Shown piece after piece: positions 12,938 through 25,582 of a stretch of 49,791 nt of DNA. The stretch covers positions 1 to 49,791 of the forward strand of contig VGIO01000003.1 of assembly GCA_016867855.1 (NCBI GenBank), read 5' to 3'. The stretch's first letter is position 1, and each line of letters begins with the position of its first letter. Source of the DNA: Calditrichota bacterium (GTDB lineage: Bacteria; Electryoneota; AABM5-125-24; Hatepunaeales; Hatepunaeaceae). A model generated the notes under the pieces. It was not told the origin of the DNA. It made no database searches and saw nothing but the letters and a program-made list of their open reading frames with translations. Made by a program: the position numbers and the translations under genes.

Positions 12938-14170
12938 ATGCGCGTCCTAATCGCTGTCGGACACAGCGGTATCTATGCCGGCGGGGCGCATCAGGCGCTC
13001 TACAGCCTAATCGGACTTAAGCGGGAAGGCGTCGAAGTTGGGGCGGTTTGGGGTCCCGACGCCGAGAACGACCCTCACGGTTTCGACCGCTTGAAAGAGT
13101 TGGATATTCCCTTTTGGATCCTGCCGATTCACCGCAAGCCGGACTGGCGAAATATAAGGGCTTTCAGAAGAATCATCATCCCGCTGCGCGGTGCAACCGA
13201 AGATGAAAGGACACCCCCCTTCATCCCCCCGCAAGCGGGGGGCGAAAGCGCGTCTATTTTTCGAGTGATATTGCAGGAATTCAAGCCGGATGTGGTCGAA
13301 GCGGTTAAATCCGGCGCGCAGTATTATACGCTGACTGCCGGGATAGGTTTAAACCGGCACGCGCTTGTATTCTACCGCGGTATCAGCCGGCCGATGGATT
13401 ATTTTCAGGAATTCAAATACCGGCTTAAACGAGTCGATAAAATCATCGCTAATTGCCGCGATTTGAAAGAGATTATGACGCGAAGCGGGCGGATTCCAGT
13501 CGAAAAGGTCGAGGTTGTGCCTGGCGAGTTCGACCCAGCTTGCAGTGAGCCGGACCAGGTCGATGCGAGCGGATTGCGCTCCGAGATGGGAATATCAGAC
13601 GGAGTTCCCGTCATCATCCAATTGGGGAATTATGCGTCCTGGCGCGGTCAGGTGTTTACCCTCAAGGCTGCTAAGATACTTAAAAACCGCGGCTATCGGT
13701 TTCATCTGGTATTCTGCGGGCGGGAGACCGATGTTCTAAAGCCTCTGGTGAAGGAACTAGGATTGAACGAATGCGTTACCCTGTCGCCGTATCGGCGCGA
13801 CCCGCAGCGGGTGCTGAAAATGTCCAACATCGCTGTCAATGCCTCCACTGCTAACGAGAGCCTGCCCGGCTCGCTGCTGAACATTCAGGCGATGGGCGTG
13901 CCGGCAGTAGCGACGACTATGCCCGGCGCGAGCGAAATTGTCGAAGATGGCGTTACCGGCTGGCTTGTTCCTCCCGGCGATGTTGAAGCCCTGGCTGACC
14001 GGTTAGCGAGGCTGCTGGCGCTGCCCAAGGCAGAAAGACAGGAATGGGGAAAACGCGCTTATGCCCGGGCGCATCGTCTTTTCTCTTCCGAAAGCCGGAC
14101 GGCAAAACGTTTGAAAGTCTATCGACAAGCGATTGAAATTCGCAAATTGAAAAATGAGGGAACAAAATGA
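12938..14170 (+). CDS. Glycosyltransferase family 4 with an in-frame 32-aa repeat insertion
   Basis: GT-B motifs (GGA, ESLP, AMGVPAVAT, EIVEDGVTGWLVPPGD). Family B element at 13171-13269. Confidence 0.9.
   Translation: MRVLIAVGHSGIYAGGAHQALYSLIGLKREGVEVGAVWGPDAENDPHGFDRLKELDIPFWILPIHRKPDWRNIRAFRRIIIPLRGATEDERTPPFIPPQAGGESASIFRVILQEFKPDVVEAVKSGAQYYTLTAGIGLNRHALVFYRGISRPMDYFQEFKYRLKRVDKIIANCRDLKEIMTRSGRIPVEKVEVVPGEFDPACSEPDQVDASGLRSEMGISDGVPVIIQLGNYASWRGQVFTLKAAKILKNRGYRFHLVFCGRETDVLKPLVKELGLNECVTLSPYRRDPQRVLKMSNIAVNASTANESLPGSLLNIQAMGVPAVATTMPGASEIVEDGVTGWLVPPGDVEALADRLARLLALPKAERQEWGKRAYARAHRLFSSESRTAKRLKVYRQAIEIRKLKNEGTK
13171..13269 (+). mobile_element. Repeat element family B, minimal 96-bp form, in frame within a CDS
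   Basis: Same ends as the copies at 10778 and 25677. Encodes IIIPLRGATEDERTPPFIPPQAGGESASIFRV. Confidence 0.9.
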
Positions 14171-14283
14171 AAACATACCGCTGCACGGTTTGCGGTTATG
14201 AGCATATCGGCGACCAGCCGCCCGACATCTGCCCGGTCTGCGGGGCGTCGAAAGAAGCATTTGTCGAAGTAAAGAGACAATGA
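14167..14283 (+). CDS. Small rubredoxin-like protein (38 aa)
   Basis: Manual translation gives MKTYRCTVCGYEHIGDQPPDICPVCGASKEAFVEVKRQ (CxxCG-x11-CPxCG). ATGA overlap with the GT stop. Absent from the ORF track. Confidence 0.88.
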   Translation: MKTYRCTVCGYEHIGDQPPDICPVCGASKEAFVEVKRQ

Positions 14284-14477
14284 TGCGTATTTCAACAATA
14301 GCCGTCGTTGCGCTAACCGGTCTGCTTTTATTTTGCACCGGTAATACGAATGCCAACCAGGTGGGGCGACTACGGTGGTCATCCATAATTCAATACAGCG
14401 CTGCTTTTTATGAAGCCGGTCTGGGGCATCCTTTGACCGGCACTAGATTTCAGCAGATTAGTATATTCGTCAAATAG
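14280..14477 (+). CDS. Small hypothetical protein with signal-peptide-like N-terminus, or a gene remnant
   Basis: ATGA overlap with the rubredoxin stop and a hydrophobic N-terminus. No recognisable domain. Confidence 0.3.
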   Translation: MMRISTIAVVALTGLLLFCTGNTNANQVGRLRWSSIIQYSAAFYEAGLGHPLTGTRFQQISIFVK

Positions 14478-14493
14478 CGGCCATCCAAACCTA

Positions 14494-15312
14494 ATGATAT
14501 CCTTTGCCGACGCCTTAGTGAACAACCTTGAAACTTCCATCTGCCGTGAGTTTTTCACTCGCTTGCAAGCCGCAAATAAGTCGCTGCTAATGCTCGACTA
14601 TGACGGCACTTTGGCGCCATTCAAGGTCGCGCGGATGAAAGCCGTCCCATATTCCGGTGTGGTCGATAGATTGAACCGGTTGAGTCGGACCGGCGCCGCG
14701 GTCGTGATTATCTCCGGTCGGCCGGTCAAGGAGGTCCAAAAATTATTAGCCGTCCGGATGCCGTTAGAAATTTGGGGCTGCAATGGCTATGAAAGAGTCA
14801 CATCCGACGGCAAGTATCGTCGCTATCGTTTGGGGCCGGAAGTCGAAGACGCTCTAGATAAGGTTCAATATCTGATCGTCGGTTTTGGTTTAAAGAAACG
14901 GATGGAGGTCAAAGTCGGCGCGGTTTTACTGCATTGGCGGGGGCAGAGAGCCTCGATCATCGAGACGCTCAGACTATTCGGCGAGAATTTATTCGACATT
15001 TACACTATTCAGGGCAAGACTGAAGTCAAGCCTTTCGACGGCGGCATCGAACTGCGGGCGACATCGCGGGATAAGGGCCTGGTCGTGCGCGAGTTGAGCG
15101 CGAATTTGGACGCCGACACGCCGGCGGCTTATCTGGGCGACGACACCACTGATGAAGACGCCTTTGCAGCGCTGCGGGATGACGACCTGCCGGTTTTAGT
15201 CCGACGGGAGTTCAGACCGTCGAAAGCCAAGGCCTGGCTGAAACCTCCGCGCGATTTATTAAAATTCTTGGATTTATGGGAAAAATCGATTAAATTTAAT
15301 ACTAAAGGTTGA
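14494..15312 (+). CDS. otsB: Trehalose-6-phosphate phosphatase
   Basis: LDYDGTL, ISGR, LHWR, DKG and GDDTTDEDAF motifs. Adjacent to otsA. Confidence 0.95.
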   Translation: MISFADALVNNLETSICREFFTRLQAANKSLLMLDYDGTLAPFKVARMKAVPYSGVVDRLNRLSRTGAAVVIISGRPVKEVQKLLAVRMPLEIWGCNGYERVTSDGKYRRYRLGPEVEDALDKVQYLIVGFGLKKRMEVKVGAVLLHWRGQRASIIETLRLFGENLFDIYTIQGKTEVKPFDGGIELRATSRDKGLVVRELSANLDADTPAAYLGDDTTDEDAFAALRDDDLPVLVRREFRPSKAKAWLKPPRDLLKFLDLWEKSIKFNTKG

Positions 15313-15391
15313 TACTGTTTCCGAGTTCACAGATTCAATGTGCAATATGATGCATTAAGAGCGCGTTAAAGCGGTGAACTCGGAACAAGCA
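15313..15391. repeat. Short inverted-repeat element
   Basis: TGTTTCCGAGTTCAC (15316-15330) and GTGAACTCGGAACA (15374-15387). Confidence 0.6.
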
Positions 15392-15409
15392 CAATAACAA
15401 AGCAGGCGA

Positions 15410-16927
15410 ATGAAATCCAATCGGCGTTCGACACATCCTGCGCCGGAGTCGGGAATCGCCCGGCTGGTCGCTGTCTCCAACCGCCTGCCGATAGCCCTGC
15501 GCAAAGTCGGCGGCAAGTGGCAGATTCAACCGGGCGGCGGGGGCTTAGTTACGGCTATTTCGCCGGTCTTGCGCCATCGCGGCGGTCTCTGGATTGGCTG
15601 GTCGGGGACGACGGAAGAAGTGAACTGGGAAACCGAGTTGGACGGGGCGTCGTTGTCCGCGGGATATACATTAGTGCCGGTAACCTTGACGCACGACGAA
15701 GCCGAGAATTTTTATCTCGGTTTTGCCAATCAAATCATCTGGCCCTTGTTTCACGATTTGCAGACCCGTTGCAATTTCGAACCAATATTTTGGCGCTATT
15801 ATCTGCAGGTTAATAATAAGTATGCTTCGGTCATCGCCAGCCATAGTCAGCCGAGCGATTTTATTTGGGTTCACGACTATCATCTAATGACCATCGCCCA
15901 GTCGCTGCGCGCATTGGGTATTGAGCGTAAAACCGGCTTCTTTCTACATATTCCTTTCCCACCGGTGGATATTTTTTTTCGTCTGCCGTGGCGTGCGCAA
16001 ATCCTGCAGGCCTTGCTTGAGTTTGATATCCTCGGTTTCCAAACCCTGCGCGACCGACGCAACTTCATTCAATGCCTCCAATACCTTTCTCCCAGTTTAA
16101 AAACATCGGGGCATGGCGCGGTGTTGACTGTCAACATCGCCGGGCGGTCGGTGCGCATCGGTAGTTTCCCCATCAGCATCGACTTCGACGAGTTTGCTGT
16201 TCATTCAGCCTCGCGCGAGGTCGAATCGCGCGTGCGCTGGCTGAAGGAATCGATGCTCGGCTCGCAAATTGTGTTGGGCGTCGATCGGCTGGACTATACG
16301 AAAGGTTTGCCGGAACGGTTGAACGCTTTTCGTCTGGCGCTGCAAAATCATCCGGATATAAGGCGGCGGTTAACATTCGTGCAAGTAGTCGTGCCATCAC
16401 GCACGGATGTTTTGGAGTATCAAGCGCTCAAAGCGGAAGTCGAGCAATTGGTAGGCGAAATCAACGGCGAGTTCACAACCGCCGGCTGGGTGCCGATTCA
16501 TTATATTTTTCGCAATTTGCAGCGCGACGAACTATTGGCTTATTACCGGACGGCGCAAGTCGCGCTGGTGACGCCGGTCAAGGACGGTATGAATTTAGTG
16601 GCTAAGGAGTATTGCGCCTGCCATTTGGATGATGACGGAGTATTGATTCTATCGGAATTTGCGGGTGCGGCGGCGGAATTGCAGCGCGGCGCGCTGTTAG
16701 TTAATCCTTACGATGTCGAAGGCGTCGCACAGGCTATCTACAAAGCCTTCTCGCTGTCAGCCGATGAGAAGCGCGCGCGGATGCGGCGGCTGCGCGACAG
16801 CATAAAAAAACGCGACATCTACTACTGGGTGGATTCTTATCTCAAAGCCGCGCTGTCGAAGAAACTGCACGATTTCCCGATGGTGGAGGATTATGTCCCG
16901 CCGATTTTGCTGCGAACAGAAATATAG
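15410..16927 (+). CDS. otsA: Trehalose-6-phosphate synthase
   Basis: [48 protein letters not shown] and SEFAGAA. Confidence 0.97.
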
Positions 16928-16948
16928 AGCCGGTCCGCTAAATCGAAT

Positions 16949-17072
16949 TGTCCGAGAATACCGGTATCCGCTGCTGCCCGGTCGTGGTCGGCAGCGTAAT
17001 TATAGGAATTACAATGTTTTGCTGTTGACTACGGTGAGTCGACGGCGGGGAATTTCACATTCTCGGACAGCC
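16949..17072. repeat. Degenerate inverted-repeat element with two internal hairpins
   Basis: TGTCCGAGAAT (16949-16959) and ATTCTCGGACA (17059-17069). Confidence 0.55.
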
Positions 17073-17076
17073 AGAA

Positions 17077-18024
17077 ATGCCTGAGCGAGCAGCGGCTCAT
17101 ACCGCGCTGTCTCCCGGTCCGGAGAAACTCTGGGATGCCGCCGCCGGGTTCATATCCTCGATTGCGCTGGAGAAGGGATTGGCGGTCAATACTCAACAAG
17201 CCTACCGGCGCGACTTGGCAGACTTCATCGATTTTACAACGCGCACGGGGATAGGAGATTGGGCGTCGGTAACTCCCCGGCAGATAACACAATATGTGAG
17301 TGAATTAATCGAGGTCGGCGCAGCGGAAGCCACGGTAGGCCGGCGGCTGTCGGCGTTGCGCGGCTTATTCGCATTTCTCACGCGCGAAAAATACATCTCC
17401 AGCGACCCTTCCGAAATCGTCATCGGGCCGCGCCTCAAGCGCAAATTGCCGGAAGTCCTGTCGGTCGAAGACATCAAATTACTAATTTCAGCCGTCGATA
17501 TATCCTCGCCGGCAGGTTTGCGCGACTGGGCGATGCTCGAATTAGTCTATGGCTGCGGTCTGCGGGTTAGCGAATTAGTAAATGTTAAGTCAGCCGATTT
17601 CCTCTTCGGCGGGGAGATTTTAAGGGTGTTGGGAAAAGGCTCAAAAGAACGGCTTGTGCCGGTAGGCGGCTGTGCCCGGGCTGCGCTGGTGGAATATCTG
17701 CAAAAAGGCCGTCCGGCGTTGATGCGCGATCCTAAAGCCGCCCGCGACAGACTTTTTCTTTCGGTTAAATTAGGCAAACCGTTGACGCGCGTTGGCTTCT
17801 GGGCTTTACTGAAGGAAATTGCTCTGCGCGCCGGTCTATCGCGCCGTGTTACGCCGCATATTTTCCGCCACTCTTTTGCTACTCACCTGTTAGAAGGCGG
17901 CGCCGGGCTGCGCGATGTCCAGGAACTCCTCGGACACGTTTCAATCGACACTACGATGATTTACACTCATATCGACCGCACGCATCTCATCGAAGTTGTG
18001 CGCACCTTTCATCCAAGAAATTGA
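17077..18024 (+). CDS. xerD: Tyrosine recombinase XerD
   Basis: EKGLAVNT..AY..DL, GLRVSEL, GKGSKER, HIFRHSFATHLL, LGH....TT.IYTH and FHPR. Confidence 0.93.
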   Translation: MPERAAAHTALSPGPEKLWDAAAGFISSIALEKGLAVNTQQAYRRDLADFIDFTTRTGIGDWASVTPRQITQYVSELIEVGAAEATVGRRLSALRGLFAFLTREKYISSDPSEIVIGPRLKRKLPEVLSVEDIKLLISAVDISSPAGLRDWAMLELVYGCGLRVSELVNVKSADFLFGGEILRVLGKGSKERLVPVGGCARAALVEYLQKGRPALMRDPKAARDRLFLSVKLGKPLTRVGFWALLKEIALRAGLSRRVTPHIFRHSFATHLLEGGAGLRDVQELLGHVSIDTTMIYTHIDRTHLIEVVRTFHPRN

Positions 18025-18036
18025 CTCTGCCATAAA

Positions 18037-18060
18037 GTAGCCCGGCTTCTTGAAGCCGGG
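18037..18060 (+). repeat. REP-like palindrome GTAGCCCGGCTTCTTGAAGCCGGG
   Basis: GTAG tetramer plus hairpin. A degenerate second copy lies at 28382. Confidence 0.65.
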
Positions 18061-18096
18061 AATTACCGCTATGGTTGCAGTAATACCCATTGGAGC

Positions 18097-18134
18097 AAAA
18101 AAACCTTGCCCCGGACGAACCGGGGCAAGGGATT
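18097..18134 (-). terminator. Intrinsic terminator of the cytochrome gene
   Basis: 11-bp perfect stem CCTTGCCCCGG/CCGGGGCAAGG, 5-nt loop, T7 tract on the minus strand. Confidence 0.85.
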
Positions 18135-18170
18135 TGATCAGCAGATTGGAGATGCCCTGTCTGATCATTT

Positions 18171-20183
18171 TTACTTCAAGAGAATCAATTTCTTACTAGC
18201 GTTGAAGCCGGCGGCTTCCATCCGCAGGATAAAGACGCCCGAAGGATGCCCGGCTAACATCACCAAGGCTTTGTAGGCGCCGGCTTTCTGCTCGCCCGAT
18301 ATGATGGTCTGGATTTCACGCCCAGCCATATCGAATACCTTCAGACTAACGAAGCCGTCGTTTGCCAATGTATAGCCGACTACCGAAGTTGGATTGAATG
18401 GATTAGGATAAGCCTCGCTGAGCGAATAGCCCAGCGGCGCTGGACCTTCGACTTTCTCAATGCCTAAATTTTCGCGGTCAGCAAGCGCGGCTTGCAGCAG
18501 ACCTTTGGCATATCCAGGATTGTGCAGACCGCCGGAGCCGTCGCTCTCGACGAATTTGTAGTTATAAGCGGCGCGCAGTTGAGCCGATGTATATCTGTTA
18601 GTAACTACGACTGTAGGTTCGCCGACCGGCGGCAGCAACATCGCTAGCGCGGTCATCAAACCCTGTATTTCGGCTTTAGCCGATTCCTGTCTTCCATCGC
18701 CGTCCCAGTCATCGACGCCGATGTCGTCGAACGACCTGTCGATATCGTCGTGGCAGCGCACGCAGGCTTCGATATGTTCAGCGCCGTCGTCTGATTTCAT
18801 CGCGAACGAATGGTCGCCTAACTTCAGATAACCCGGCGCATTCGGATCTTCCGGTCCGGAACTCATATGGCAGCCAACGCAGCCGTTCTCGATGATTCGT
18901 CCGTGCGGTGTGGACTCAATTTCCCGGCCATATTCGATAGCATTTGTGCCGGCTACCATATCGCTCTGGTTGCAGTAGTGTGGGCCGAAGCGGTCGGAAT
19001 AGCGCTGGACATAAGTTACGGCGTTGCGGCGGGATTGGTGGCAGTTGGCGCAAATGTTCCCCAGGTCGAAATTGACTTCGACGCCATTTTGCAGTCTCAC
19101 CGGCGTAACCGTGCGGACTTGATGCTCGTTAGTCGCATCGTGCGGATTATGGCAGACCGCGCAGGTGATAGGGAGGTAGGTTAAGTCTTTCAAAGAATCA
19201 GGCACGCCTGCCAAGTGGTCGAGAAAGCCGACGCCACTGTGGCAGCGCACGCAGCTTGGGCGGCTCTCTTCCGGCGGGCGCGAGTGTCCTGAATTATCCC
19301 ACTGATAAGGCCGGGTGTGATGTGTGCCGGAGTCGTGGCATTTGGCGCAGACGCCTGTCTCCAGTGAAACTGTCATCTTATTATCGGAATTATTACCCAT
19401 ATGCGCTGAGCCTGGTCCGTGGCAGTTTTCGCATTGGATGTTCGCCATTTTGGCGGTTTCCGGGAAGCGCACTTTCATTGTGTCCCAAGTTCCCGGGCGC
19501 AGACCGCCGCGGGCGCTGTCTAGGAAGGTCCAACCTTCCTGGCGCGCCATATCGTCGAAGCCGTGGTTGACGGCTAATGAGTCGGTGTTATAACCGACGA
19601 CGTGGCAACGCACACAAGAAGCCCGCCAACTCATACTTTGCTGACCATCGATAGCGCGTGCAAAGACATCGCCGTGTTTCGTTTCGCTCCACGGACGAAC
19701 TTTTTGGTCAACTTGTCCGTTGTGACAGGCGGCGCATTGGGGAACTTGCGGATTGCCGACGATGCTGCCGACGCCGACATAATTCGCGGCGTTCACCGCC
19801 AATTCCACCGCGTCGCTTTGACCGGCGGCAGTGGTTACGCGCAGAGTGATTCTATATGTTCCGCGCAGGTCTGGAGTGAATTTGACCACCGCGACATTAG
19901 CCGCGCTTAGAGCCGCTTGCGAATTGCGCGGGCGCGCCGCCATCGTCCAAGCCCAGGCTGTTACGGCTGTATCGCCGGGATTACCGGTTAAATAGACTAT
20001 CTCGCCGACGCCGACATTCGGTAGTCCGGTTGAAGGTTTGTCGTATATATCGAGCGTATCCCTTGCGACCGTCCGATCTGAAACGGCCAGAACCTTAATT
20101 ATGGCTGTGGACTGGGCAAAGGAAGTCATCACCAAAGTCAGCAATAAACAAATTGCCCCCAAAGCGATTACGAACTTTCTCAT
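18171..20183 (-). CDS. Secreted nonaheme c-type cytochrome with Ig/PKD-like N-domain and C-terminal secretion/sorting tail
   Basis: Signal peptide and nine CxxCH motifs (CAACH, CVRCH, CENCH, CAKCH, CVRCH, CAVCH, CANCH, CVGCH, CVRCH). AAYNY..V.SDGS.GLHNP.YA helical region. Tail AYPNPFNPT...VFDMAGREI...PSGVFILRM...KKLILLK. AGGAG RBS. Confidence 0.9.
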   Translation of the reverse strand: MRKFVIALGAICLLLTLVMTSFAQSTAIIKVLAVSDRTVARDTLDIYDKPSTGLPNVGVGEIVYLTGNPGDTAVTAWAWTMAARPRNSQAALSAANVAVVKFTPDLRGTYRITLRVTTAAGQSDAVELAVNAANYVGVGSIVGNPQVPQCAACHNGQVDQKVRPWSETKHGDVFARAIDGQQSMSWRASCVRCHVVGYNTDSLAVNHGFDDMARQEGWTFLDSARGGLRPGTWDTMKVRFPETAKMANIQCENCHGPGSAHMGNNSDNKMTVSLETGVCAKCHDSGTHHTRPYQWDNSGHSRPPEESRPSCVRCHSGVGFLDHLAGVPDSLKDLTYLPITCAVCHNPHDATNEHQVRTVTPVRLQNGVEVNFDLGNICANCHQSRRNAVTYVQRYSDRFGPHYCNQSDMVAGTNAIEYGREIESTPHGRIIENGCVGCHMSSGPEDPNAPGYLKLGDHSFAMKSDDGAEHIEACVRCHDDIDRSFDDIGVDDWDGDGRQESAKAEIQGLMTALAMLLPPVGEPTVVVTNRYTSAQLRAAYNYKFVESDGSGGLHNPGYAKGLLQAALADRENLGIEKVEGPAPLGYSLSEAYPNPFNPTSVVGYTLANDGFVSLKVFDMAGREIQTIISGEQKAGAYKALVMLAGHPSGVFILRMEAAGFNASKKLILLK

Positions 20184-20208
20184 CTTTTCTCCTGATTTAA
20201 ATTGAGAA

Positions 20209-20226
20209 TTGTGTAAAATTACACAA
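20209..20226. promoter_or_regulatory. Rex-like operator
   Basis: TTGTGTAAAATTACACAA, an 18-bp palindrome matching TTGTG-N8-CACAA. Confidence 0.55.
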
Positions 20227-20323
20227 TATTATATTAACTTTGTTGTAATTGGCTCACCTTTGTCCTATAAATACATTTATAATCACTAAACTAAAGCGAG
20301 CGTAAAATTATTAGGTTTATAGT

Positions 20324-20339
20324 AGCAAATCTTATGCCG
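20324..20339 (-). promoter_or_regulatory. Sigma54 -24/-12 promoter
   Basis: Minus strand CGGCATAAGATTTGCT fits GG-N10-GC with TTGC. Oriented toward the cytochrome, about 140 bp upstream of its ATG. Confidence 0.65.
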
Positions 20340-20361
20340 TTTTTAGTAGGACAAAACAGAC

Positions 20362-20511
20362 GAGCTAATTGCAAAAGTGATGATTAATCCAGAAAACTCA
20401 GACATGGCAAGGCGGACGCCCTCGTCCGCCGAAAACCAAGCCTAGAATGCGGCGGACGAAGGCGTCCGCCTTGCCATCAGTTAATAAATCCAACGCTTTT
20501 GCAATTACCTC
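20362..20511. mobile_element. MITE family A (150 bp), TSD AGAC
   Basis: GAGCTAATTGCAAAAGTG...CGCTTTTGCAATTACCTC, with AGAC at 20358-61 and 20512-15. Confidence 0.92.
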
Positions 20512-20588
20512 AGACTTGTAAGATTTGGAGTTATTAAAATAATATCGTAATTTATGTTTTGGTAGATACAGGCAAATAATAAGAGGCG

Positions 20589-20755
20589 TCATACCAATTT
20601 GCATTCATAATGAATAAAGGGATTCAAAATTAACAACGGATTAAACGGATAGAACGGATTAACCTAGCGGCTTTACAGGATTATTCGTTTCATCCGTTTA
20701 ACCTGTGTGACTTTATTTCGACATTTATCATCTGATCGATTGCGACTTGGTGTCA
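20589..20755. mobile_element. MITE-like family D
   Basis: TCATACCAATTTGCA...TGCGACTTGGTGTCA imperfect TIRs with internal inverted 9-bp AACGGAT repeats. A closely similar copy lies at 49663. Confidence 0.75.
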
Positions 20756-20947
20756 TTTAGTATTTACGCGTAAAACACTTCATATAAATATAATTACATT
20801 TTTCTAAAAGTCAATATCAGAATAATCTCCAATCTTAAAAAAACGACCGTTCCCAAAGGTTCGTCACGCGGCTTCAGCCTAAGGAAGAATATTCTTACAC
20901 GGACAGCGTCTGTTTTAGGCGCCGACAGCCCCGGCGGTCGGGTAGCC

Positions 20948-21553
20948 ATCACCGGCGCCAATTATTTAACTATTTTACGTCTGCTGATCGTCCCGCTGTT
21001 TTGGATTTGCTTCTTCAATCCGGGTTGGTTGGTCCAGTTTATCGCTACCCTGCTGATAGCCATCGGCGCATTGACCGATATGTGGGATGGCAGATTAGCG
21101 CGCCGCCGCGGGCAAATCACGCCGTTCGGCAATTTTATGGATCCGCTGGCCGATAAATTGTTAGTCCTTTCAGCCTTTTGGGCGCTGCTCATTCGAGAGA
21201 ATCTGGGCGGCTTTCAGATATCAGCGCTCATTCTCGTTTCGATTATCACTCTGCGCGAAATTGCCCTGACCATCCTGCGCGTATATAAAATCCGCAGCGG
21301 TTCGTCCTTGCAGACCAGTCTCTGGGGCAAATGGAAAACCGCCGCCCAACTCATCACTATCCTGCTAACTTTCACGCTTTTTAATCTACGCGCCTTTGCA
21401 ACAGCGCGTGAAGTTTCTATTCCGATTTTAAACGACGTGATAATGAACATAACGATAACAATTTTACTGACAATCTGTATGTTGACATCGGTTATTTCGG
21501 GGTGGTTATATTTGAAAGATATGTTTAGAGACTTAAATGGACAAGATGGCTAA
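20948..21553 (+). CDS. pgsA: CDP-diacylglycerol--glycerol-3-phosphate phosphatidyltransferase (start uncertain)
   Basis: DMWDGRLARR.GQIT.FG.FMDPLADK and GKWKT. The conserved ANYLTILR helix is in frame upstream of the first canonical start (21029). Confidence 0.9.
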   Translation: MTGANYLTILRLLIVPLFWICFFNPGWLVQFIATLLIAIGALTDMWDGRLARRRGQITPFGNFMDPLADKLLVLSAFWALLIRENLGGFQISALILVSIITLREIALTILRVYKIRSGSSLQTSLWGKWKTAAQLITILLTFTLFNLRAFATAREVSIPILNDVIMNITITILLTICMLTSVISGWLYLKDMFRDLNGQDG

Positions 21554-22037
21554 AACGGTCTCAAATCGAATGTTTAGTGGTGTGGCTATTCAGATTGCTA
21601 CCCTAGGTCCGGTTGGCCGTCTACCGGTGGCGCCTGGCACTTGGGGCAGCGGCGCTGCGGCTATATTATGGTGGTGGCTGGCAGGCGTGTTTCAGTTTGC
21701 ACTCCTGGCTTCGTTCATCGTCCTGCTGGCGATTTTATCGATTATAGTCTCCACTATCGCCGAGCGGTGCCTAGGCTGCGACGCCCGGCCGATTGTCATC
21801 GACGAGGTTGTTGGGCAGTGGTTGGCGCTGCTCTGGTGTCCGCATAGTTGGATTTGGTTCGCCGGTGGATTTATATTGTTTCGCGTGTTCGATATATTCA
21901 AACCTTTTCCCGTTCGGGCATCCCAGAAACTGCCCGGCGGTTGGGGTGTAACGATCGACGATATATTAGCCGGACTTTATGCTGCATTATGTTTATACTT
22001 CATTGGGAGATTTTTCGATGGACTCGGGACGCTGTGA
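21546..22037 (+). CDS. pgpA: Phosphatidylglycerophosphatase A
   Basis: APGTWGS, IVIDEVVG, FRVFDIFKP and GVTIDDILAG. Start is 21537 or 21546. Confidence 0.95.
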   Translation: MAKTVSNRMFSGVAIQIATLGPVGRLPVAPGTWGSGAAAILWWWLAGVFQFALLASFIVLLAILSIIVSTIAERCLGCDARPIVIDEVVGQWLALLWCPHSWIWFAGGFILFRVFDIFKPFPVRASQKLPGGWGVTIDDILAGLYAALCLYFIGRFFDGLGTL

Positions 22038-23349
22038 ATTAATCGTTGTCGGGGATGAAATTCTACTTGGTCAGACGCTGGACAGCAACAGCCGCTACAT
22101 CGCCCGCCGGTTGACCGACAACGGAATGCGGCTGCACTGGATTTCGGTTGTCCCGGACGATAAAGACGAGATAAAAACCGCGCTCGACCGAGCCACTGGG
22201 CGCGCTTCAGCGGTGATTATAACCGGCGGATTAGGCCCGACTGCCGATGATTTCACCCGTCCGGTTATCGCGGGATTTTTCGCTGACAACTTAGTTTGGC
22301 GGCAGGATTTAGCGGATGCGATTTTAGCGCGTTTCGAGAAGCGCGCAATTCGCCCCTCGCCGGGCTGGGAGACAATGGCTTATTTTCCCAGCCGTGCCGC
22401 CGCCATTCCCAACGCCCACGGCGCCGCGCCGGGGATACATTATAATTATGTCCGCGACCACAAAGGCGCGACGGCGGTAGTGACGCCTGTTGCAGATTCG
22501 TTACAGTCTGTTGCCATTGAACCCGTCTTCAGAGAAGCCGGGCGGCAATTATTCGCCCTGCCCGGCGTCCCAGTCGAGATGCGCGGGATGTTTGAAGACT
22601 ATATCTTGCCACGTTTGATTGCAGCGCGCAAGGGCGTATTTAAGTCGCGCATATTCAAGACGGTGGGCGCCGGCGAGACGCATTTGGCAGCCTGCATCGG
22701 CGACCCGGCGGTTTTGGCGCCGGCAACGCTCGCCTTCCTGCCCAGCCTCGACCAGGGCGTCACCTTGCGTCTATCCTGCTCCGGCGACGATGTAAACTTA
22801 GTCCACCCTGTCCTTGAGAAAGGCTCGGCTATAATCAGAACGGCGATTCAATCTTATATTTACGCTACAGAGGAAATCCCTTTGGAAGCGGTCATAATCG
22901 ATATTTTGCGATATCGCGGCTGGAAGGCCGCGTTTGCTGAGTCTTGCACTGGCGGGATGATTTCCGCGCGCTTAACTTCCATCCCCGGTGCTTCGGATGT
23001 CTTCGAGCGCTGTTTTGTTACCTATTCCAACCAAGCCAAAGTCGAACTATTAGGAGTCGCGCCGGATATTATCGAGAACTACGGCGCAGTCAGCGAGCAA
23101 TGTGCGCGGGCAATGGCCGAGGGCGCTTGTCAGCAAGCCAAGGTTGATATTGCCATCAGCGTAACCGGCATCGCTGGGCCGGGCGGCGGAACTGTGGAAA
23201 AACCAGTCGGATTAGTCTATATCGGTGTAGCCGACCGCGGCGGCAGCAAAGTCAAGCGTTTCACCTTTGCCGGCGACCGCGACGACAACCGGCGGAGGGC
23301 CGCCTTAGCCGCGCTGACGATGTTATATCGTAAGTGCATCAATGCCTAA
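22018..23349 (+). CDS. cinA: Competence/damage-inducible protein CinA (MocF plus PncC domains)
   Basis: GDEILLG, TGGLGPT.DD, LPGVP.EM, AESCTGG, GAVS and TGIAGPGGG. ATG 22018 preferred. Confidence 0.95.
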   Translation: MDSGRCELIVVGDEILLGQTLDSNSRYIARRLTDNGMRLHWISVVPDDKDEIKTALDRATGRASAVIITGGLGPTADDFTRPVIAGFFADNLVWRQDLADAILARFEKRAIRPSPGWETMAYFPSRAAAIPNAHGAAPGIHYNYVRDHKGATAVVTPVADSLQSVAIEPVFREAGRQLFALPGVPVEMRGMFEDYILPRLIAARKGVFKSRIFKTVGAGETHLAACIGDPAVLAPATLAFLPSLDQGVTLRLSCSGDDVNLVHPVLEKGSAIIRTAIQSYIYATEEIPLEAVIIDILRYRGWKAAFAESCTGGMISARLTSIPGASDVFERCFVTYSNQAKVELLGVAPDIIENYGAVSEQCARAMAEGACQQAKVDIAISVTGIAGPGGGTVEKPVGLVYIGVADRGGSKVKRFTFAGDRDDNRRRAALAALTMLYRKCINA

Positions 23350-23363
23350 GTGTAATGTGCGAG

Positions 23364-23432
23364 GTCATTCGAACGGAGTGAAGAATCTCGTCTCCAAACC
23401 CAGACGAGGCTCTTCACTGCGTTCTGAGTAAC
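23364..23432. repeat. Palindromic repeat family C
   Basis: GTCATTC-GAACGGAGTGAAGAATCTCG...CGAGGCTCTTCACTGCGTTCTGAGTAAC. Related copies at 25617 and 42148. Confidence 0.75.
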
Positions 23433-23518
23433 CAAATTCCGTCTTTGACAGGATTTAGGTTCTAACTCTTTTTAACTTCTTTAACTTTCTAACTTTCTAA
23501 CTTACAACCGGATATCAA

Positions 23519-24748
23519 ATGCATAAATTAACCATCGACGACCTTGAATTGCGCGGTAAGCGCGCCTTTGTGAGGGTGGATTTCAATGTGCCGCTCTCAG
23601 CGGAAGGCAAGGTCGAAGACGACACACGCATTGCGGCTTCACTGCCGACATTGCGCAAAATCCTGCTCGCAGGCGGTTCGGCGGTTGTCGCCAGTCACCT
23701 TGGCCGGCCCAAAGCCAAGCGCGAGGAAAAATATTCGCTTAAACCGGTCGCGGATAAACTGCGGGAGTTGACCGGCTGGCCGGTTAAGTTCGTCCCGGAT
23801 TGCATCGGATTGGAGGTCGAAGCCGCTGCCCAGGCGCTTAAGTCCGGCGAAATTCTGCTGCTGGACAATGTCCGTTTCTACCCGGGCGAGGAAGCCAACG
23901 ACCCGGCTTTCGCCGCTCAGTTCGCCAAATTGGCGGATTACTATATCAACGACGCCTTTGGCTCGGCGCACCGGGCGCATGCCTCGACGCATGCTGTGGC
24001 TGGACATTTTCCCGGTCGAGCCGCTGCCGGTTACTTGATGGAGAAGGAACTGGCGTATCTCGGACGCGCGCTGGCTAATCCGCAAAGACCGTTTGTCGCG
24101 GTCATCGGCGGCGCGAAGATATCGACGAAAATCGATGTCCTGCGCAACTTGCTGAAGATGGTCGATTTACTGCTCATCGGCGGAGCGATGACTTATACCT
24201 TTGAGAAAGCCAAAGGCGGCAAGATTGGCAAATCGTTGTGCGAGGAAGATAAAATAGATGCCGCCAAGGAGATTCTCGCTTTGCCTGAAACCGGCAAATT
24301 GCGCCTGCCGGTCGATTCGCTCACGGCGCTAAATCCAGACGCCGTATGCGAGTCGGAAGTCGCCGGACAGAAAATCAAGCACATCTGTTGGCGCATACGG
24401 TTGTCCAATGCCATCCCGGATGATGAAATTGGCTTCGACATCGGGCCGGAAGCGGTGTCGGATTTCACAAAAGCAATTGCCGGCGCTAAAACTATCGTCT
24501 GGAACGGTCCGTTAGGAATGTTCGAGAAAGACTTGTTCGCCGGAGGGACGAAGGCGGTCGCACGAGCATTGGCGGATTTGACGGCGGCCGGCGGCATTAC
24601 AGTTGTCGGCGGTGGAGATTCCGTTGCGGCGCTGGAAAAATTTGGGCTGTCCGATAAGATGTCCCATATATCGACCGGCGGTGGAGCGTCGCTGGAATTT
24701 TTAGAGGGTAAAGTTCTCCCCGGTGTAGCCGCTTTGACGGATAAATAA
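23519..24748 (+). CDS. pgk: Phosphoglycerate kinase
   Basis: RVDFNVP, SHLGRP, DAFGSAHRAHAS, GGAK, WNGPLG and STGGGASLE. Confidence 0.98.
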   Translation: MHKLTIDDLELRGKRAFVRVDFNVPLSAEGKVEDDTRIAASLPTLRKILLAGGSAVVASHLGRPKAKREEKYSLKPVADKLRELTGWPVKFVPDCIGLEVEAAAQALKSGEILLLDNVRFYPGEEANDPAFAAQFAKLADYYINDAFGSAHRAHASTHAVAGHFPGRAAAGYLMEKELAYLGRALANPQRPFVAVIGGAKISTKIDVLRNLLKMVDLLLIGGAMTYTFEKAKGGKIGKSLCEEDKIDAAKEILALPETGKLRLPVDSLTALNPDAVCESEVAGQKIKHICWRIRLSNAIPDDEIGFDIGPEAVSDFTKAIAGAKTIVWNGPLGMFEKDLFAGGTKAVARALADLTAAGGITVVGGGDSVAALEKFGLSDKMSHISTGGGASLEFLEGKVLPGVAALTDK

Positions 24749-24823
24749 TTTCAAAACACAGAGGCACAGATGACACAGAGTAAAATCTCGGCGCTCTCTG
24801 TGTCTCTGTGTTAAAGGAGTCCT

Positions 24824-25582
24824 ATGCGGGAAATCGTTATTGCCGGCAATTGGAAGATGAACACCTTGCCGGCCGAGGGCGTTATTTTGGCTCGGGCTGT
24901 TGCAGATGTAACTGCAGCGATGACGCAGGTTCTGGTCGTAATTTGTCCGCCGGCGACACATCTGAAAGATGTCGTCGAAGCCGTGCGCGGCACATATATC
25001 GGCGTCGGCGGGCAGAATGTGCATTGGGAGAAGTCCGGCGCTTACACCGGCGAATTGTCGGCGGATATGTTGCTGATGATCGGCGCTAAATGGGTCATCA
25101 TTGGGCATTCCGAGCGGCGCAAGTATTTTGGCGAGACCGACGAAACGGTCAATAAACGTGCTAAACGGGCTTTATCGGCAGGACTGCGCCCAATCGTTTG
25201 CATCGGCGAGACTTTGGAGGAGCGTCAAGCCGGCAAGACCTTTGAGGTCTTAATGCGGCAGGTAAAAATCGGGTTGGACGGGCTTGTATTAAAGGGCCGC
25301 GGCGGACTGGTCATAGCCTACGAGCCGGTTTGGGCTATTGGCACCGGCGTCAACGCCACGCCGGAGCAGGCGCAGGAAGCGCACTATTTCATCCGCGGCT
25401 TGTTGAAAGTATCATACGGCGATGAAATTGCCGACCAAACCGTCATCCAATACGGCGGCAGCGTAACCGATGCAAATGCTGTCGAATTGATGGCTTGCCC
25501 GGATGTGGACGGCGCACTGGTGGGCGGCGCTTCGCTTAAAGCGGATGTATTCGGGAGAATTGTCAAGGCAGGAGTGAAATAG
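24824..25582 (+). CDS. tpiA: Triosephosphate isomerase
   Basis: GNWKMN, GHSERR, AYEPVWAIGTG, YGGSV and LVGGASL. Confidence 0.98.
   Translation: MREIVIAGNWKMNTLPAEGVILARAVADVTAAMTQVLVVICPPATHLKDVVEAVRGTYIGVGGQNVHWEKSGAYTGELSADMLLMIGAKWVIIGHSERRKYFGETDETVNKRAKRALSAGLRPIVCIGETLEERQAGKTFEVLMRQVKIGLDGLVLKGRGGLVIAYEPVWAIGTGVNATPEQAQEAHYFIRGLLKVSYGDEIADQTVIQYGGSVTDANAVELMACPDVDGALVGGASLKADVFGRIVKAGVK

Follow-up and report, generated by a model that had tools for sequence, protein, structure and literature searches.

We analyzed a 49,791-nt stretch of DNA from a Calditrichota bacterium (contig VGIO01000003.1; hereafter, the window), which is one contig (C3) of a 3.10-Mb assembly of 294 contigs that is 94.3% complete. 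At positions 18171-20183 of its minus strand lies an open reading frame (ORF) that opens with ATG and encodes a nonaheme c-type cytochrome precursor. The protein combines a heme core of the type found in OcwA, the surface reductase of Thermincola potens, with a C-terminal sorting domain of a type IX secretion system (T9SS). A preliminary description, made from the DNA letters, had noted a signal peptide, an Ig/PKD-like region, nine CxxCH motifs and several further motifs in this protein, all of which were found, in the sequence and in an AlphaFold2 (AF2) model, where it had put them. The features of the gene product are listed below, with residue numbers (aa) and the basis of each assignment; pLDDT is the predicted local distance difference test score, and A1 is an alignment of 36 homologs.

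18171-20183, minus strand: whole gene, nonaheme c-type cytochrome precursor of 670 aa (ORF list, motif count, Pfam and NCBIfam)
20115-20183, minus strand: Sec signal peptide, aa 1-23, cleavage likely after SFA (sequence reading; AF2 helix 2-18)
19785-20099, minus strand: PKD-like Ig beta-sandwich, aa 29-133 (AF2 strands, pLDDT about 86-96)
18474-19739, minus strand: nonaheme core and C-terminal three-helix bundle of the OcwA/OmhA fold, aa 149-570 (profile and structure matches)
19317-19322, minus strand: His288-His289, aligned to the HH pocket over the open-site heme 2 of OcwA (profile alignment and the OcwA paper)
18693-18713, minus strand: DDWDGDG acidic loop (DxDxD), aa 491-497 (conservation in the family)
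18516-18542, minus strand: DGSxGxHNP helix, aa 548-556 (conservation in A1; OcwA alignment)
18174-18410, minus strand: T9SS type A C-terminal sorting domain, aa 592-670 (TIGR04183, fold and docking)

The nine CxxCH motifs start at residues 150, 190, 251, 279, 311, 341, 378, 435 and 474, and neither CxxCK nor CxxxCH occurs in the 670-aa protein. Further downstream, DDWDGDG starts at residue 491, GLHNP at 552, YPNPFNP at 592 and KKLILLK at 664. Pfam returned multiheme matches to Cytochrome_C7 (47.5 bits) and, in part, to the MtrC/MtrF domain PF22113 (43.3 bits, best stretch aa 139-200). When A1 was searched as a profile against PDB sequences, the best match was OcwA (6i5b, E 8.2e-27), with which the nine heme motifs and the DGSxGxHN helix aligned, and the second was the undecaheme OmhA of Carboxydothermus ferrireducens (6qvm, E 7.6e-14). 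These were followed by NrfA, whose match was restricted to the C-terminal part (E 1.9e-8), and by octaheme nitrite reductases; the fold family also takes in MccA. The AF2 model (pLDDT 87.6, predicted TM score 0.81) fell into three parts, namely a beta domain at residues 29-133, the heme core with three C-terminal helices (502-516, 533-547 and 556-567) and a terminal beta-sandwich at residues 575-668. Foldseek placed OcwA and OmhA at the top ranks for this model. Structural alignment with VIA-align superposed model residues 133-571 on residues 43-525 of the OcwA chain 6i5b_B (Z 13.7, 319 residues, 3.6 Å, 28% identity) and 342 residues on the OmhA chain 6qvm_A (Z 13.9, 6.9 Å), and no MtrC-family chain was among the structural matches listed. 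The preliminary description had proposed an OcwA-like nonaheme core with an NrfA-like helical C-terminus, and both the profile and the structure comparison bear this out; we regard the OcwA-type identity of the core as secure.

Next, the residues that might ligate the hemes were compared with those of OcwA. In OcwA, hemes 1, 3, 4, 6, 7 and 8 are described as bis-His ligated and heme 9 as His-Met ligated, and hemes 2 and 5 have an open site beneath an HH motif (PMC6703420). As aligned, His288-His289 of the window protein correspond to the pocket over heme 2, and the second pocket, over heme 5, is replaced by F-G. Among family cores, 85% of the 165 tailed and 70% of the 70 tail-less ones keep H289, and 47% and 37%, respectively, keep H288. 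Eight histidines outside the heme motifs (H170, H261, H300, H348, H402, H427, H458 and H554) and Met440 were kept in 89-100% of the 235 full-coverage cores, 192 of which carry nine CxxCH. A reading of nine conserved histidines outside the motifs as all-bis-His ligation was dropped because OcwA, which likewise has enough histidines, keeps two open hemes (PMC6703420). In the acidic loop, which had no counterpart in OcwA in the alignment, D492 and D494 were invariant in A1 and kept in 90-96% of the 235 cores; judging from its residues, the loop possibly binds calcium. In the DGSxGxHNP helix, D548, S550, G552, H554 and N555 were invariant in A1 and the motif aligned with the same motif of OcwA, a pattern consistent with His554 being a likely distal heme ligand.

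The C-terminal region was then analyzed. TIGR04183, the profile of the T9SS type A sorting domain, matched residues 592-667 with 32.1 bits against a cut-off of 23, and with 36.5 bits in a scan of the genome. The preliminary description had called this region a FlgD-Ig/Por sorting tail; the T9SS part of that assignment stood, and the FlgD_ig part did not, its match to the tail being insignificant (12.4 bits, E 0.16). In structure, residues 583-670 lay near solved C-terminal domains (CTDs) of T9SS cargo, namely 6za2 (Z 9.1), 8qb1 (Z 8.9), 8glk_D (Z 8.5) and 5m11 (Z 8.2), and the beta-sandwich also resembled the solved CTD 7pq4. Unrelated Ig sandwiches score alike, so that the fold by itself does not discriminate. 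The motif residues of the tail were invariant over the 36 aligned homologs, which share only 37-76% identity. We also docked the tail (aa 583-670) on the genome's own PorV (aa 25-364), both given as alignments. The pair scored an ipSAE of 0.88, compared with 0.06 for the best control; of 80 solved complexes, 58 attained the mark used, as did 2 of 110 mismatched pairs. The docking runs agreed in at least 97% of contacts, with a pLDDT of at least 90 for the partners, and the interface took in the invariant tail residues 593-597, 621, 649, 665 and 670. Since like complexes have already been solved, this result shows likeness to them rather than binding by this particular copy. We consider the identity of the tail as a T9SS type A sorting domain secure.

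At the other end of the protein, the signal peptide was recognised by eye, without a predictor, from MRK, a hydrophobic stretch and SFA|QS. The domain that follows it matched the PKD folds 2yrl and 6ihb in structure comparison (Z 7.8) and a KIAA0319L PKD profile (E 1e-6); the Pfam K319L-like PKD match (17.1 bits) lay under its cut-off of 27.

The sorting-tail proposal depended on secretion and cytochrome maturation parts, and such parts were found in the genome. TIGR04183 had 148 matches there, 145 of them above the cut-off and the cytochrome ORF among these. A purpose-built hidden Markov model (HMM) of the tail also returned 145 ORFs with the tail at the C-terminus, of which the window cytochrome is the only multiheme one; a single CxxCH was present in one further ORF. 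SprA was identified with matches of 660 and 160 bits and occupies a whole small contig. PorU (364 and 224 bits) is split between the ends of two contigs, C111 (7489-10473) and C5 (2708-3835); because the translated contig ends overlap, this split is an assembly artefact. PorU itself ends in a T9SS-type tail, and PorV follows PorU. PorV scored 115.3 bits on PF19572 (cut-off 27) and 217.7 bits on NF033710, under the cut-off of 250. For covalent heme attachment, the genome has System II, represented by ResB and a CcsA-like ORF (C1); the ORF adjoining ResB was not recognisable as CcsA.

We further examined the other multiheme proteins of the genome, which has 10 ORFs with at least three CxxCH in total; the window gene is the only one on its contig. 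Three co-oriented genes on contig C31 (locus L090, 6465-9571, minus strand) encode a 401-aa protein, a 304-aa protein with 11 hemes and a 323-aa protein with eight hemes, the last of which carries a lipobox and the Geobacter C4xC/C2xCH motif. The 401-aa protein has a signal peptide and belongs to no Pfam family; its model (pLDDT 66.3) consists of about 24 antiparallel strands, and Foldseek returned 316 matches at E≤1e-3, the top ones all being outer-membrane barrels. Only three relatives of it were detectable, one from Calditrichaeota. From this model, we regard the cluster as resembling a porin-cytochrome (pcc) cluster, unlinked to the window gene, and as a candidate conduit. Geobacter-like pcc porins have been reported for Ignavibacterium and Melioribacter (PMC6137239). 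On contig C6 (L091, 7125-10955, minus strand), genes for a Rieske protein and a cytochrome b are flanked by a c554-like four-heme cytochrome and a nine-heme cytochrome with a C-terminal membrane anchor; this complex is a candidate quinol oxidase that feeds periplasmic multiheme cytochromes. With both clusters present, it is plausible that other proteins of this genome take electrons to the outer membrane and across it. Two further multiheme ORFs, on contigs C86 (3-1349, minus strand; 11 hemes) and C235 (1-720, plus strand; at least six hemes), have the same "HNP" helix end and no sorting tail; both touch contig ends, and the C86 ORF also matches the NapC/NirT N-terminal region.

To place the protein in its family, a word-indexed search was run, in which 8000 proteins were scored and 728 of them reached E≤1e-3. 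By our own tail HMM, the tail was kept in 114 of the 120 best relatives, whose source names include Calditrichaeota, KSB1, Rhodothermales, Ignavibacteria, Melioribacteraceae, Stygiobacter electus and Bacteroidetes. An exhaustive search with the heme core (aa 135-585) returned 2186 representatives at E≤1e-3 and 399 at E≤1e-30; the tail was present in 67 and absent from 83 of the 150 representatives listed. Tail-less cores end soon after the HNP helix or in other recurring C-termini, with examples from Verrucomicrobiae, Anaerolineae and Sumerlaeota. Among these C-termini (P0130, P0161, P0122 and others), "...FYRVxxxP" recurs in clusters named for Verrucomicrobiae and "...DYPD(I/M)xLRGP..." occurs in one named for Sumerlaeota. 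Such alternative endings may serve as further address or anchoring modules, each particular to a lineage. Tandem OcwA-like cores, two or three per protein, were seen in P0121, P0122, P0123, P0208 and P0240 (18-26 CxxCH; 1026-1946 aa).

A FastTree phylogeny was built from 158 of the 235 cores, comprising all exhaustive-search representatives, every third word-search match and five named proteins. The tail label changed 14 times on this tree, at least 10 of the changes being forced by well-supported branches, compared with a mean of 50.7 when labels were shuffled (none of 500 shuffles was as low). The window protein fell within a pure tailed clade of 10 (support 97), and tail-less cores grouped into two coherent clades (32 and 24 rows). 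Several isolated tail-less tips nested among tailed ones resemble truncated ORFs. As this was a quick tree without a root, it is not taken to show any order of events. Strong full-length orthologs (54-58% identity) were present in 3 of 15 genomes of the same family, two of which add a long form of about 980 aa, and in none of 25 genomes from other families of the phylum, where matches were weak or confined to the tail. A search for related loci with the whole protein likewise returned mostly tail-only matches, with a single full-length homolog (L007) among the 80 loci kept. In an uncultured Caldithrix contig, a 53%-identical homolog has the same neighbours, genes for a CDP-alcohol phosphatidyltransferase and CinA, in divergent orientation to it; the position beside pgsA-pgpA-cinA is thus common to the window and that contig. 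This shared gene order and the best-match names of three proteins point to a host that is probably a member of Calditrichota; a pattern search with Pgk returned matches scattered over several phyla.

The DNA around the gene was also inspected. Two signals were read from the sequence:

20189-20193, minus strand: Shine-Dalgarno sequence AGGAG, with a 5-nt spacer to the ATG
18104-18130, minus strand: intrinsic terminator about 40 nt past the stop codon, with an 11-bp stem, nine GC pairs and a T-run

Neither terminator-like sites in the region (4, compared with a shuffle mean of 3.9) nor sigma-70-like sites upstream (5, compared with 3.4) were in excess, and no match to a sigma-54 promoter was found upstream of the cytochrome gene. 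A Bacteroidetes-type -7-like motif 449 nt upstream of the gene was judged not meaningful. The genes annotated by Pfam on both sides (12938-25582) encode a glycosyltransferase, trehalose-phosphatase, trehalose-6-phosphate synthase, XerD-like recombinase, PgsA, PgpA, CinA, Pgk and Tpi. These are housekeeping neighbours, among which no porin or other outer-membrane barrel, no cytochrome or periplasmic multiheme gene and no quinol dehydrogenase was found. For this annotated range, the preliminary description was right that the gene stands alone, with its own terminator and neither porin nor quinol dehydrogenase nearby. It is the sole long minus-strand ORF within a plus-strand run of about 25 kb (372-25582) and adjoins the gene for the XerD-like recombinase. 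Upstream of it, a 78-nt near-perfect palindromic hairpin (20403-20480, minus strand) is a copy of a dispersed repeat like the repetitive extragenic palindromic elements. The genome contains 90 occurrences of its 15-nt seed; the window copies, which lie mostly in intergenic gaps, include ones near 1664 and 44092 on the plus strand and 28307 and 33814 on the minus strand. Matches to Rfam models of miRNA precursors upstream of the gene, which were below the gathering score and spurious, are explained by this palindromic repeat. The DNA of the window recurs in eight sequencing runs, all lake-water metagenomes, and no RNA dataset was listed among them.

From the sequence, fold, family, tail identity, machinery and in-silico docking described above, we infer a scheme in which every step of localisation and electron flow is conditional. 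With moderate confidence, we favor a nine-heme cytochrome of the OcwA/OmhA type that would be exported by the T9SS, would act as a terminal module of extracellular electron transfer and would be fed by a separate conduit. Its N-terminal signal peptide would direct Sec export, after which System II (ResB and the CcsA-like protein) would attach heme covalently in the periplasm. PorV would then recognise the type A sorting domain of the folded holo-protein, whose passage through the outer membrane would proceed via the SprA translocon, and PorU would cut off the tail, leaving the cytochrome surface-anchored or released. T9SS export of the cytochrome is likely, and the host, a lake bacterium, probably places the protein outside the outer membrane. 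Outside the cell, it would carry out terminal electron transfer to insoluble or large acceptors, such as Fe(III)/Mn(IV) oxides, humics or partner cells, and might perhaps also serve small substrates at an OcwA-like open heme. A role in extracellular electron transfer is, by homology, the function best supported. Electrons would be supplied by the C31 porin-cytochrome cluster, itself drawing on the Rieske/cytochrome b complex of C6, so that the cytochrome would form the outermost module. The T9SS would thus have the role that type II secretion has for MtrC/OmcA, placing the cytochrome without substituting for the trans-membrane conduit.

Several observations weigh against this scheme. The Pfam profile of the sorting tail, PF18962 (Por_Secre_tail), gave 21.6 bits, below its gathering score of 27, so that the tail assignment of the preliminary description passed on TIGR04183 and not on Pfam. 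The passed docking may reflect memory of solved PorV-CTD complexes. In the genome, TIGR03513, TIGR03517 and PF12081 gave no match for GldL and GldM. For GldK, TIGR03525 reached at most 69.5 bits, compared with a cut-off of 350, with generic FGE-sulfatase matches only, and no gldKLMN-like operon lay beside the FGE-sulfatase ORFs; GldN was not searched. A complete T9SS is accordingly not shown in this 94%-complete, 294-contig assembly. A control run qualifies part of this result: the GldM model found a Flavobacteriales genome (370 bits) and missed all four others (Ignavibacteriaceae, Zixibacteria, Caldithrix and Rhodothermales). Since the model is insensitive outside Flavobacteriales, the GldM negative is uninformative. 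Outside Bacteroidia, the part that energises the T9SS may have diverged too far for the curated models to detect, or it may be a different one. The barrel model of C31 is moderately confident and was built on three sequences, and no redox partner is linked to the cytochrome gene in its annotated flanks. Because the predicted structure contains no hemes, ligation and any open site are read from residues and alignment. The distribution of orthologs, in 3 of 15 and 0 of 25 genomes, indicates that this is not a core respiratory gene. Finally, no demonstration of T9SS export of a covalently heme-loaded protein was found in the literature searched.

Four other explanations were weighed. The same heme core could belong to a T9SS-exported surface or extracellular enzyme that acts on small substrates in solution (nitrite, hydroxylamine, sulfite, tetrathionate and similar compounds) in detoxification or respiration, and not on solid acceptors. 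NrfA, octaheme nitrite reductases and MccA share its fold family, OcwA itself turns over nitrite and hydroxylamine (PMC6703420), and His288-His289 align to the OcwA pocket over the open heme 2. Nevertheless, the protein has no CxxCK and has F-G at the second OcwA pocket; the eight extra histidines and Met440, so widely kept among the 235 cores, suffice to hexacoordinate nine hemes; and fewer than half of the tailed cores (47%) keep H288. The nitrite turnover of OcwA is slow, with a kcat of 1 per min (PMC6703420), and small substrates enter the periplasm, so that export would be unnecessary. We therefore regard such an enzyme as unlikely. A cytochrome at the same location could also work in reverse, drawing electrons inward from Fe(II), reduced humics or a syntrophic partner. 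Multiheme conduits are reversible in principle, relatives of OcwA and OmhA have been reported in connection with Fe(II) oxidation in Dethiobacter, and the DNA recurs in lake-water metagenomes, where redox gradients exist. However, the sequence gives no direction, the characterised homologs OcwA (PMC6703420) and OmhA (PMC7829351) are reductases, and a setting of carbon fixation or Fe oxidation was neither looked for nor found; inward flow seems to us to have a small chance.

The preliminary description had gone further, proposing that export by a sorting tail takes the place of a porin-cytochrome conduit, in which case electrons would arrive without a trans-outer-membrane protein wire, for example, by soluble shuttles. 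The absence of a neighbouring porin or cytochrome gene fits this idea, as does the tight binding of flavin mononucleotide by OcwA (PMC6703420). Against it stand the unlinked pcc-like cluster in the same genome, with its predicted barrel and two multiheme cytochromes, one a lipoprotein, and the pcc porins reported for Ignavibacterium and Melioribacter (PMC6137239). Moreover, secretion localises a protein and moves no electrons across a membrane; at the level of the genome, replacement of the conduit is not supported, and we consider this part of the original proposal quite improbable. The least probable explanation, in our view a very remote one, is that the cytochrome is periplasmic and its tail a non-functional remnant. 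The sub-threshold Pfam score, the undetected T9SS motor genes and the 83 tail-less cores among the 150 representatives listed would agree with a remnant. However, the tail passes TIGR04183, keeps its motif invariant across 36 homologs of 37-76% identity, is retained by 114 of 120 close relatives and docks on the genome's own PorV via invariant residues. We therefore retain the scheme of a T9SS-exported terminal cytochrome fed by a separate conduit.

Extracellular electron transfer in diderm bacteria is understood almost wholly from Shewanella and Geobacter, and little is known of the ways in which other phyla bring multiheme cytochromes to the outside of the outer membrane. The combination of core and tail is kept in hundreds of proteins of the Fibrobacteres-Chlorobi-Bacteroidetes (FCB) group and offers a testable answer for a large, environmentally abundant group. 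No paper linking a T9SS/Por tail to multiheme cytochromes was found among the papers listed by searches of open-access and bioRxiv full text; a mention in print is possible. In the sections of the Melioribacter genome paper that deal with Por domains, these are tied to carbohydrate-active enzymes only. Diderm relatives of OcwA are already in print, and the sorting tail of OcwA-type cytochromes was not found there. The "new route" of the preliminary description calls for qualification: no paper was found that discusses the family, but the family numbers hundreds, and NCBI already labels its members "T9SS type A sorting domain-containing protein". As its sequence reads, the window protein is a variant of the OcwA-type surface cytochromes that is addressed to the T9SS, and it belongs to a widespread family that has gone undiscussed.

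A broader proposal, which we put forward tentatively and at somewhat less than even chances, is that respiratory multiheme cytochromes facing outward are generally assembled by way of the T9SS throughout the FCB superphylum (Calditrichota, Ignavibacteriota, KSB1, Rhodothermales and other Bacteroidota). The OcwA-type core would then have been re-addressed in evolution by swaps of C-terminal tags according to the envelope of the host: the FCB group would use the T9SS CTD, Verrucomicrobiae, Sumerlaeota and Anaerolineae would use other conserved C-termini, and the monoderm Thermincola has no such tag. If this were true, many abundant heterotrophs of sediments and lakes would be unrecognised electroactive organisms. 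Covalently heme-loaded redox proteins would likewise join the known T9SS cargo if the export proposed here holds, and an OcwA-like core together with a TIGR04183 tail would be a simple genomic marker for predicting electroactivity in metagenomes. Some of the relatives stem from cultured strains (by source name, Stygiobacter electus and Melioribacteraceae bacterium 4301-Me are among them), which opens the hypothesis to bench experiments.

Finally, we compared the window protein with known systems. OcwA is the nonaheme cell-surface terminal reductase of T. potens JR (PDB 6I5B; Costa et al. 2019, PMC6703420), which reduces iron oxides, nitrite and hydroxylamine. The two proteins share nine CxxCH one to one, a core with c554-like and NrfA-like parts, the three-helix bundle with DGSxGxHN and the HH pair over heme 2. 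They differ in that OcwA comes from a monoderm host without an outer membrane and lacks the PKD-like domain, the DxDGDG loop and the T9SS tail, in that its second HH pocket (heme 5) is F-G in the window protein, and in having 28% identity over the aligned structure. OmhA, an undecaheme S-layer cytochrome of C. ferrireducens (PDB 6QVM) that functions in extracellular Fe(III) reduction (PMC7829351), has a homologous heme core and helical C-terminus (E 7.6e-14; Z 13.9), but it lacks a T9SS tail, carries eleven hemes and occurs in association with a Gram-positive S-layer. The passages of that paper on OcwA place it in a subclade of nonahemes from Gram-negative bacteria and leave a secretion tail unmentioned (PMC7829351). 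Unlike the pentaheme nitrite reductase NrfA, the window protein has no CxxCK catalytic heme motif.

Compared with type A cargo of Bacteroidota (RgpB, mirolase and NucA), the protein has the same combination of a Sec signal and a C-terminal beta-sandwich of about 80 residues with the same profile and fold, a predicted PorV interface and, in its genome, an adjacent PorU-PorV gene pair. In contrast, this cargo is predicted to be a covalently heme-loaded cytochrome and not a hydrolase, adhesin or nuclease, and its host lies outside Bacteroidota, with GldK, GldL and GldM not detected there. The C31 cluster resembles the Geobacter-type pcc in having a barrel, a periplasmic multiheme cytochrome and a lipoprotein multiheme cytochrome with C4xC/C2xCH, whereas the window gene lies outside the cluster, and its relation to it is one that we infer. 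In Shewanella, type II secretion brings MtrC and OmcA to the cell surface, and MtrAB wires them. The window protein differs from them in its fold family (the partial PF22113 match spans 58 residues), in having nine hemes and not ten, in its secretion system and in being unlinked to the putative conduit. In logic, however, the arrangement that we propose would be alike: a folded holo-multiheme cytochrome would cross the outer membrane by a general secretion system and be fed by a porin-cytochrome module.

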